DNA of 30,887 nt from Escherichia coli (GTDB lineage Bacteria; Pseudomonadota; Gammaproteobacteria; Enterobacterales; Enterobacteriaceae). The position numbers were made by a program, and so were the translations under genes. Positions 26,676 through 26,994 of the stretch are shown in pieces. How positions within the stretch are numbered: position 1 is the stretch's first letter; each line of letters begins with the position of its first letter. The stretch lies in NCBI RefSeq assembly GCF_003334765.1, contig NZ_QOWT01000041.1; one strand, 5' to 3'. The notes beneath the pieces were generated by a model. It was not told the origin of the DNA, did not search any database, and saw only the letters and a list, made by a program, of their open reading frames with translations.

Positions 26676-26923
26676 AGGGTTCCTCAGCTCGCTGACAAGT
26701 CGACCCATCTGTCCATTGAGCGGACAGTTTGTGCAACACTATTTTGTTGACCGGAAAATGGAACACTTTCCGCAATGCCTGTTGCTATCACGCTTAAACC
26801 ATTTCATTGCGATTTACACAGAACGGACGTCCTGTCGCAGTATATTAAGTCGTCGATAGAAACAAGCATTGAAAGGCACAGCAGTAGTCAAACAGTGTGA
26901 AACGCTACTGGCGCCTTACAGCG

Positions 26924-26955
26924 CAAAAAGGCTGGTGACTAAAAAGTCACCAGCC
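26924..26955 (-). terminator. rplL-rpoB intercistronic attenuator (partial terminator)
   Basis: Minus strand GGCTGGTGAC-TTTTTA-GTCACCAGCC followed by TTTTTGCGC, about 40 nt after the rplL stop; an attenuator at this position is established for the operon. Confidence 0.8.
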
Positions 26956-26994
26956 ATCAGCCTGATTTCTCAGGCTGCAACCGGAAGGGTTGGC

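Follow-up and report, generated by a model that had tools for sequence, protein, structure and literature searches.

A conserved terminator hairpin in the rplL-rpoB spacer of Escherichia coli: the tL7 attenuator and its correspondence to Rfam P26

Results

The rplL-rpoB spacer and its terminator hairpin

The spacer between rplL and rpoB in the analyzed window (the whole stretch of 30,887 nucleotides of Escherichia coli contig NZ_QOWT01000041.1) contains a hairpin followed by a U tract, which we identify with high confidence as tL7, the attenuator of the rplKAJL-rpoBC cluster in E. coli, the same element as Rfam P26 and a constitutive but leaky intrinsic terminator. It has the anatomy of a canonical intrinsic terminator, is conserved in other genomes and coincides with an RNA 3' end formed in vivo. 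The rplL-rpoB attenuator has already been described; it is textbook knowledge for E. coli and has an entry in Rfam, and the analysis adds no new biology to it. What is added here is a comparison across genomes and the recognition that P26, listed by Rfam as an 'sRNA', is one and the same object as the classical tL7 attenuator and as the source of the Term-seq 3' end at position 4180995 of MG1655.

The genes follow each other on the minus strand in the order rplL, rpoB and rpoC. Based on the RefSeq annotation of the flank, the coding sequence of rplL (ribosomal protein L7/L12) spans 27360..26995 (-) with a TAA stop codon at 26997..26995, and rpoB spans 22647..26675 (-) with the annotated start at the ATG at 26675 (MVYSYTEKK). 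The rplL stop and the rpoB ATG delimit a spacer of 319 nt (26676..26994, -), and the rpoB-rpoC spacer comprises 76 nt (22571..22646); both lengths agree with the initial annotation of this DNA. The 319-nt spacer is 100% identical to MG1655 positions 4180926..4181244, and the surrounding 2901 nt showed 0 mismatches. Of 5426 complete E. coli genomes, 5421 were matched by a 461-nt query crossing the spacer, 5419 with an identity of at least 99%, and the RefSeq annotation under this match corresponds to rplL and rpoB. With a folding energy of -127 kcal/mol (z -8.0), the spacer as a whole is unusually structured.

In the list of open reading frames, rpoB runs up to an in-frame ATG at 26708 (-), 33 nt 5' of the annotated start, giving a product of 1353 amino acids. 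This ATG was rejected as the rpoB start, because relatives carry GTG or TTG at this place, followed by an in-frame stop, and the start is not conserved. The sole small-ORF candidate of the spacer encodes 22 amino acids (MKWFKRDSNRHCGKCSIFRSTK; 26808..26740, -) and lies within hairpins B and C described below. It was discarded as a leader peptide based on the lack of an evident Shine-Dalgarno sequence and a stop at codon 3 in Klebsiella; among the spacer ORFs, and in comparison with relatives, no conserved small ORF or leader peptide was evident in the rplL-rpoB spacer.

The terminator hairpin, hereafter T (GGCUGGUGACU-UUUU-AGUCACCAGCC; 26930..26955, -), consists of an 11-bp stem with seven G-C pairs and a UUUU loop. 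Its folding energy amounts to -21.7 kcal/mol (z -9.3), none of 200 shuffled sequences folded equally well, and it represents the best terminator-like site of a 9-kb scan. A tract of five U residues (U5; 26925..26929, -) lies directly 3' of the stem and is followed by G. The strong hairpin and U tract noticed earlier on the minus strand are therefore present at 26955..26925 and withstand the shuffle test, and the shortness of the U5 tract fits a partial efficiency. Plus-strand matches of Rfam and of a covariance model (25.9 and 28.2 bits) arise from the palindromic nature of T and are not followed by a U tract, and a bidirectional terminator was rejected.

In vivo RNA 3' ends fall onto this tract. 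The curated Term-seq data set for MG1655 contains a 3' end at 4180995 (+) with a score of 61408.7 (Adams et al. 2021, PMC7815308, supplementary file 1) and a weaker one at 4180997 (+) with a score of 4962.66, the listed sequence context placing the end between ...AGTCACCAGCCTTTTT and GCGCTGTAAG (Adams et al. 2021, PMC7815308). By coordinate mapping, 4180995 corresponds to window position 26925, the final U of the tract, and 4180997 to 26923. RNA 3' ends at the hairpin, on which the initial annotation had staked its reading, do occur (4180995 = 26925). These ends are tagged 'orphan' only because they are located more than 50 nt beyond rplL. Overall, three features of an intrinsic terminator are found together: a G+C-rich stem-loop, an adjoining U tract and in vivo 3' ends within the U tract.

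Two hairpins upstream of the terminator

Two further small stem-loops had been noticed between rplL and T, and both are located as described. The first one, H1 (CAACC-CUUCC-GGUUG; 26978..26992, -), begins 3 nt past the rplL stop and consists of 5 bp with a 5-nt loop. Its fold is weak (-4.2 kcal/mol; 6 of 200 shuffles equal) and marginal by itself; given its position, H1 would be within reach of a ribosome at the rplL stop codon. The second one, H2 (CAGCCUGA-GAAA-UCAGGCUG; 26958..26977, -), is strong, with 8 bp, an energy of -13.1 kcal/mol (z -5.8) and 0 of 200 shuffles folding equally well; it ends 2 nt before the T stem and corresponds to helix 1 of the Rfam P26 model. Folded jointly (26994..26924), H1, H2 and T reach -40.7 kcal/mol (z -8.0). 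H2 is not incidental: it is part of the conserved P26 module and the conserved partner of T, and a stem-loop abutting T on its upstream side recurs across Gammaproteobacteria. Several other lineages show a first hairpin of unrelated sequence at the place of H1.

Correspondence to Rfam P26 and tL7

The only Rfam match in the spacer region is RF00630, 'Pseudomonas sRNA P26', at 26929..26990 (-), with 74.5 bits compared to a gathering score of 36 and an E-value of 8.6e-14. This match sits in coding orientation between rplL and rpoB, is full-length (model positions 1-66) with all pairs formed, and its two helices are H2 and T. P26 was named by Livny et al. 2006, who saw transcripts in P. aeruginosa by northern blot and attributed its several bands to overlap with the UTRs of flanking genes. 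Later, P. aeruginosa P26 was described as a partial terminator immediately 3' of rplL, and tL7, the partial Rho-independent terminator of E. coli, as its homologue with 80% termination; compromised RNA polymerase leads to more read-through (Qi et al. 2014, PMC4324240). A bioRxiv 2021 preprint gives a termination of ~70% at the attenuator, a further paper describes it as decoupling beta/beta' from ribosomal-protein expression, and read-through reporter constructs use the rplL terminator as a stable second terminator (PMC9765468). Taken together, the identity to K-12, the Rfam P26 match, the tL7 literature and the Term-seq end bear out the earlier proposal that the hairpin is the established partial terminator of rplL-rpoB.

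Conservation in other genomes

The conservation of the element was analyzed in a sample of 80 loci encoding L7/L12 relatives on one-genome-per-species contigs, in each of which the rplL-rpoB spacer was delimited; including E. coli, the set comprises 81 loci. Rfam P26 reached the cut-off in 13 of the 80 other loci, always directly after rplL and between rplL and rpoB, and these belong to Enterobacterales, Vibrionaceae, Alteromonadales, a Methylococcaceae MAG, Pseudomonas and two gammaproteobacterial MAGs. A looser search pattern for the stem base and the U run (GGCUG[GA]...C[AG]GCC followed by at least three U) occurs downstream of rplL in E. coli and in 44 of the 80 other loci (45/81 overall), mostly from Gammaproteobacteria plus a few from betaproteobacteria (Pseudothauera, Azoarcus, Snodgrassella). 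Elsewhere in the 502 kb of the same loci, searched on both strands, this pattern gave 0 matches. In addition, a self-built covariance model yielded 42 sense-strand matches, all of them in the region of the rplL 3' end and the rplL-rpoB spacer. Outside Proteobacteria, the sampled loci showed unrelated terminators or none.

With the stems anchored at their base, positions 6-11 of the T stem showed many compensatory changes, such as G-C to A-U and U-A to C-G, with A-U, G-C, C-G and U-A alternatives also occurring. The invariance of positions 1-5 is uninformative, because the search pattern fixed them, and for this part it is the recurrence of the pattern alone that counts as evidence. In an alignment of 18 sequences, the T helix was 94% paired and four pairs were changed on both sides; the covariation score of H2 and T together was 0.242 compared to 0.145 in shuffles, with 0 of 500 shuffles reaching 0.242 and far lower values in slid controls. 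H2 was out of register in several lineages both in the MAFFT alignment and in that of our own covariance model (63% of cells paired), and H1 and H2 were therefore judged by alignment-free folding against shuffles and not by column covariation. Compared to dinucleotide shuffles, the segment from the stop codon to T had a median z of -2.3, and 26/45 loci were at or below the 5% level. A hairpin ends at most 4 nt from T in 34/45 loci, and the distance from the stop to T is narrowly distributed across the 45 loci (median 40 nt, interquartile range 36-44).

The length of the U run was 4 or 5 in 40/45 loci, with five residues in 24, four in 16, three in 3, and six and one in a single locus each. The conservation of the basal stem sequence, the short U tract and the abutting upstream hairpin over distant proteobacterial orders argues for strong selection on the leakiness itself. 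It is mildly puzzling that the basal stem is constant in sequence, beyond structure, across such distant lineages.

In 19 of the 45 loci (L007, L008, L015, L016, L022, L029, L040, L043, L047, L049, L061, L063, L069, L070, L071, L072, L073, L078 and L079), the conserved 5' arm of T contains GCTGGTGG, which we take to be the E. coli Chi octamer. All seven Enterobacterales loci, including E. coli (GCTGGTGA), are one or two bases short of GCTGGTGG. Shared ancestry and the consensus itself probably account for its occurrence.

The read-through leader and the RNase III site

To model the RNA downstream of the attenuator, the sequences of E. coli, Klebsiella and Photorhabdus were aligned and folded to a consensus. 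The resulting consensus fold of these three Enterobacterales comprises 71 pairs, ten of which show compensatory changes. The segment GCGCUGU (26918..26924, -) adjoins the U tract and is conserved as GCGCUGUAGG in Enterobacterales, Vibrionaceae and Alteromonadales. It is predicted to be the 5' strand of a long-range helix with AUAGUGU (26736..26742, -), the 3' strand in the consensus fold, and this helix would close a domain of three elements (A, B and C) in the read-through RNA. Stem-loop A (26873..26917, -; -15.4 kcal/mol, z -2.6) shows compensatory changes among the three Enterobacterales. Hairpin B (26773..26872, -; -34.8 kcal/mol, z -5.2) is an irregular structure of 100 nt, whose lower stem consists of 11+5+3+5 bp with single-nucleotide bulges, i.e. 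about 24 bp. It is followed by hairpin C (CGGAAAGUG-UUC-CAUUUUCCG; 26752..26772, -; z -5.9) and, further downstream, by hairpin D (CUGUCCG-CUCAA-UGGACAG; 26709..26727, -; z -4.6), which is conserved to Vibrionaceae with compensatory changes. The translation-initiation region of rpoB (GGGUC..CAGCGAGCUGAGGAACCC; 26677..26706, -) is highly conserved and includes the Shine-Dalgarno sequence GAGGA (26685..26681). A hairpin sequestering this Shine-Dalgarno sequence (26706..26677) was no better than shuffles (z -0.25) and was rejected; the conservation is at the sequence level.

Passages in reviews credit Barry et al. 1980 with RNase III cleavage of the rplL-rpoB spacer. A classical RNase III substrate was taken to require some 20 bp or more, corresponding to about two turns of the helix, of largely uninterrupted double-stranded RNA. 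The stems of H1, H2 and T (5, 8 and 11 bp) are shorter than this, and the candidate RNase III site was placed in hairpin B because no other element is long enough; in this structural model, the site probably lies in hairpin B and not at H1, H2 or T. Coordinates of RNase III cuts in the spacer were not found in the text or supplements of Gordon et al. 2017 and Altuvia et al. 2018.

In the spacer of Acerihabitans arboris (L004, about 2113..2250), an imperfect palindrome of ~130 nt (-59.7 kcal/mol) separates hairpin C from the conserved AAATGGTGTTGCA block. Its core (GTGAATCCC..GAGCTTAC..AAGTGA..GGGTGAGCG) is similar to an ERIC/IRU repeat. Given this insert, the read-through leader tolerates insertions between hairpin C and AAATGGTGTTGCA.

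Further elements along the operon and in the window

Several other features were observed in the course of the analysis. Upstream of rplL, a small hairpin spans the rplJ stop (AGCTGCTTAATCGCAGTT) and is followed by ATCTTTTTAA (window 27436..27409, -); published data contain a minor Term-seq 3' end with a score of 1230 in this rplJ-rplL spacer (MG1655 4180511 = window 27409). A further published Term-seq 3' end (MG1655 4179777 = window 28143, -; score 9598, one growth condition) falls into the rplA-rplJ spacer, within the long rplJ leader and downstream of a promoter-like site at 28314..28286. The 3' part of rplL itself contains a promoter-like site at 27120..27093 (-) with an extended -10 (CTGAAA-16-TAGAAT), from which a short transcript with its 3' end at the attenuator could in principle arise, but promoter-like matches in this region are no more frequent than expected by chance.

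Past the end of rpoC, the Rfam sRNA sroH (RF00372, 201 bits) was detected at 17433..17593 (+), for which published data show a very strong Term-seq 3' end at MG1655 4190323. A TPP riboswitch (RF00059, 74.8 bits) is located at 11640..11740 (+) and is presumably the leader of the thiC operon. In Pseudomonas asuensis (L073, 737..921, -), Rfam 'Pseudomonas sRNA P27' (RF01674, 168.7 bits) was found on the strand opposite to rplJ, by position in the rplJ leader region. As with P26, the sRNA entry P27 may describe a cis element of the operon, and its orientation may be wrong.

Discussion

The attenuator sets the amount of RNA polymerase relative to ribosomal proteins, and it is the reason why impaired polymerase (by rifampicin or rpoB mutations) raises rpoBC expression; both are established. 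Based on the arrangement described here, RNA polymerase leaving rplL would transcribe H1, H2 and then the 11-bp G+C-rich T stem followed by five U only. At the U tract, the majority of complexes would let go of the transcript, whose 3' end then lies at 26925; published values put termination at 70-80%. The remaining complexes would enter the structured leader of ~250 nt and then rpoBC. Owing to this partial termination, messages for beta/beta' would be produced in smaller amounts than those for ribosomal proteins. The incompleteness of the stop is, we infer, due to the shortness of the U tract and to the G+C-rich DNA that follows it (GCGCUGU). H1 and H2 together would fill the 39 nt from the stop codon to T, corresponding to the roughly constant gap of 40 nt across loci; they probably shield the folding of T from the terminating ribosome and from the rplL coding RNA, and may give the rplJL mRNA a 3' end that is doubly capped and stable. 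Further downstream, RNase III cuts the read-through RNA, probably in hairpin B.

How much of this depends on T alone, and on T as a factor-independent stop, can be weighed on the data at hand. It is possible, though we consider it the less probable case, that Rho adds directly or indirectly to the intrinsic stop, so that the attenuator is not purely factor-independent. Earlier work by Ralling and Linn from 1987 is said to describe Rho and NusA effects in the rplL-rpoB spacer, which we count in favor of such mixed termination. The table of Rho regions lists 4181000 (+) with a Rho score of 1.99 (p 3.9e-46) after bicyclomycin (Adams et al. 2021, PMC7815308, supplementary file 2). This bicyclomycin-sensitive position corresponds to window position 26920 (-), 5 nt beyond the 3' end at the attenuator and within GCGCUGU, and the score means that termination here may not be purely intrinsic. 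However, the 3' end lies exactly on a canonical hairpin and U tract; bicyclomycin disturbs global transcription and read-through answers to polymerase activity, so that the effect may be indirect; and the Rho score uses windows of 800 nt and does not localize a Rho site. In the untreated DirectRNA-seq data (Adams et al.), the 800-nt windows around 4181000 contain 1503 counts upstream and 1193 downstream, with the column order inferred from the reported ratio. This is no five-fold drop and was counted against the reading as the tL7 partial terminator, but the numbers are steady-state counts of RNAs with unequal stabilities. That H1, and perhaps H2, is chance or tolerated structure without a role, with T alone being of importance, appears doubtful. 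The weak fold of H1 (-4.2 kcal/mol; 6/200 shuffles equal) and its unrelated sequences among lineages would agree with this, as would loci of the betaproteobacterial type, in which T follows 17-19 nt past the stop without an upstream hairpin. Against it, H2 is part of the curated P26 model and its sequence is kept from Enterobacterales to Pseudomonas, the stop-to-T segment beats shuffles in 26/45 loci, and the proximity of a hairpin to T (at most 4 nt in 34/45 loci) goes along with the narrow stop-to-T distance (median 40 nt, interquartile range 36-44).

Two further readings, both improbable, would assign the element a regulatory function of its own. A free-standing sRNA gene, encoding an H2+T RNA of roughly 62 nt that acts in trans, would be in line with the Rfam type 'Gene' of RF00630, the P. 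aeruginosa northern transcripts (Livny et al. 2006) and the promoter-like site inside rplL (27120..27093, -; 9/12 matches, TG). We judge this very unlikely, since the element has the orientation of rplL and begins a few nt past its stop codon, the northern bands were put down to UTR overlap by Livny et al. themselves, and P26 is a partial terminator according to Qi et al. Promoter-like matches, moreover, occur at chance frequency (9 compared to 5.9 +/- 2.6 expected), and the promoter scan gave no match from the rplL stop to H2. To our knowledge, no target or seed region of P26 has been described. An internal promoter of the spacer was also rejected, as its sole match (26698..26671) overlaps the rpoB start and its frequency equals chance. 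A regulated attenuator, in which the 5' arm of H2 (CAGCC) pairs with the first bases of T (GGCUG) and H2 serves as an anti-antiterminator switch, could be read from the presence of GGCUG in both the H2 3' arm and the start of T in E. coli, Enterobacterales and Pseudomonas. Yet the alternative fold amounts to -14.6 kcal/mol vs -40.7 kcal/mol for H1+H2+T, i.e. it is 26 kcal/mol worse, and the upstream segment is no more complementary to the T 5' arm than shuffles are (40 loci, median z -0.3; 5/40 at p of at most 0.05). As there is also no leader peptide, the only spacer ORF (22 aa) being broken in Klebsiella, such a switch is extremely improbable. An attenuator of the trp/his type was rejected on the same grounds, as a mutually exclusive antiterminator is unfavorable and not conserved and there is no conserved small ORF.

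Across much of the Gammaproteobacteria and in a few betaproteobacterial loci, the H2+T module is kept in sequence as well as in structure, which allows one further speculation. The GGCUGGUG/CACCRGCC stem base, the U run of 4-5 and a downstream GCGC recur in 45/81 loci, which gave rise to the idea that H2+T might be read sequence-specifically by a trans-acting factor or by RNA polymerase, as a calibrated sensor of polymerase or of Nus/Rho activity. We regard this as unlikely; if true, it would mean autogenous control of beta/beta' synthesis and not a generic leaky terminator.

In the ribosomal-protein leader attenuators (the E. coli S10 leader with L4 and the B. subtilis rplJL leader with L10(L12)4), termination likewise sets the expression of translation-machinery operons. 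These attenuators are located in 5' leaders and contain alternative structures switched by the binding of ribosomal proteins, whereas the rplL-rpoB attenuator shows no sign of an effector, an alternative structure or a leader peptide. The RNase III site (Barry et al. 1980) shares the spacer and the read-through transcript with the attenuator, but is an element distinct from the hairpins H1, H2 and T. Rfam RF00630 agrees with the element in its H2+T two-helix model and in synteny and strand between rplL and rpoB. It differs in being typed as an sRNA gene, whereas the evidence presented here and in PMC4324240 points to a cis-acting partial terminator or the end of a 3'-UTR; furthermore, the model does not include H1, and its gathering score is reached in only 13/80 other loci, although 44/80 carry the same terminator stem base. 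Finally, tL7 as described by Barry, Squires and Squires 1979/1980 and by Morgan and Hayward 1987 is located ~70 nt past rplL, consists of a hairpin and U tract and, according to the literature, terminates partially (70-80%); it is the same element, with identical sequence and no difference.
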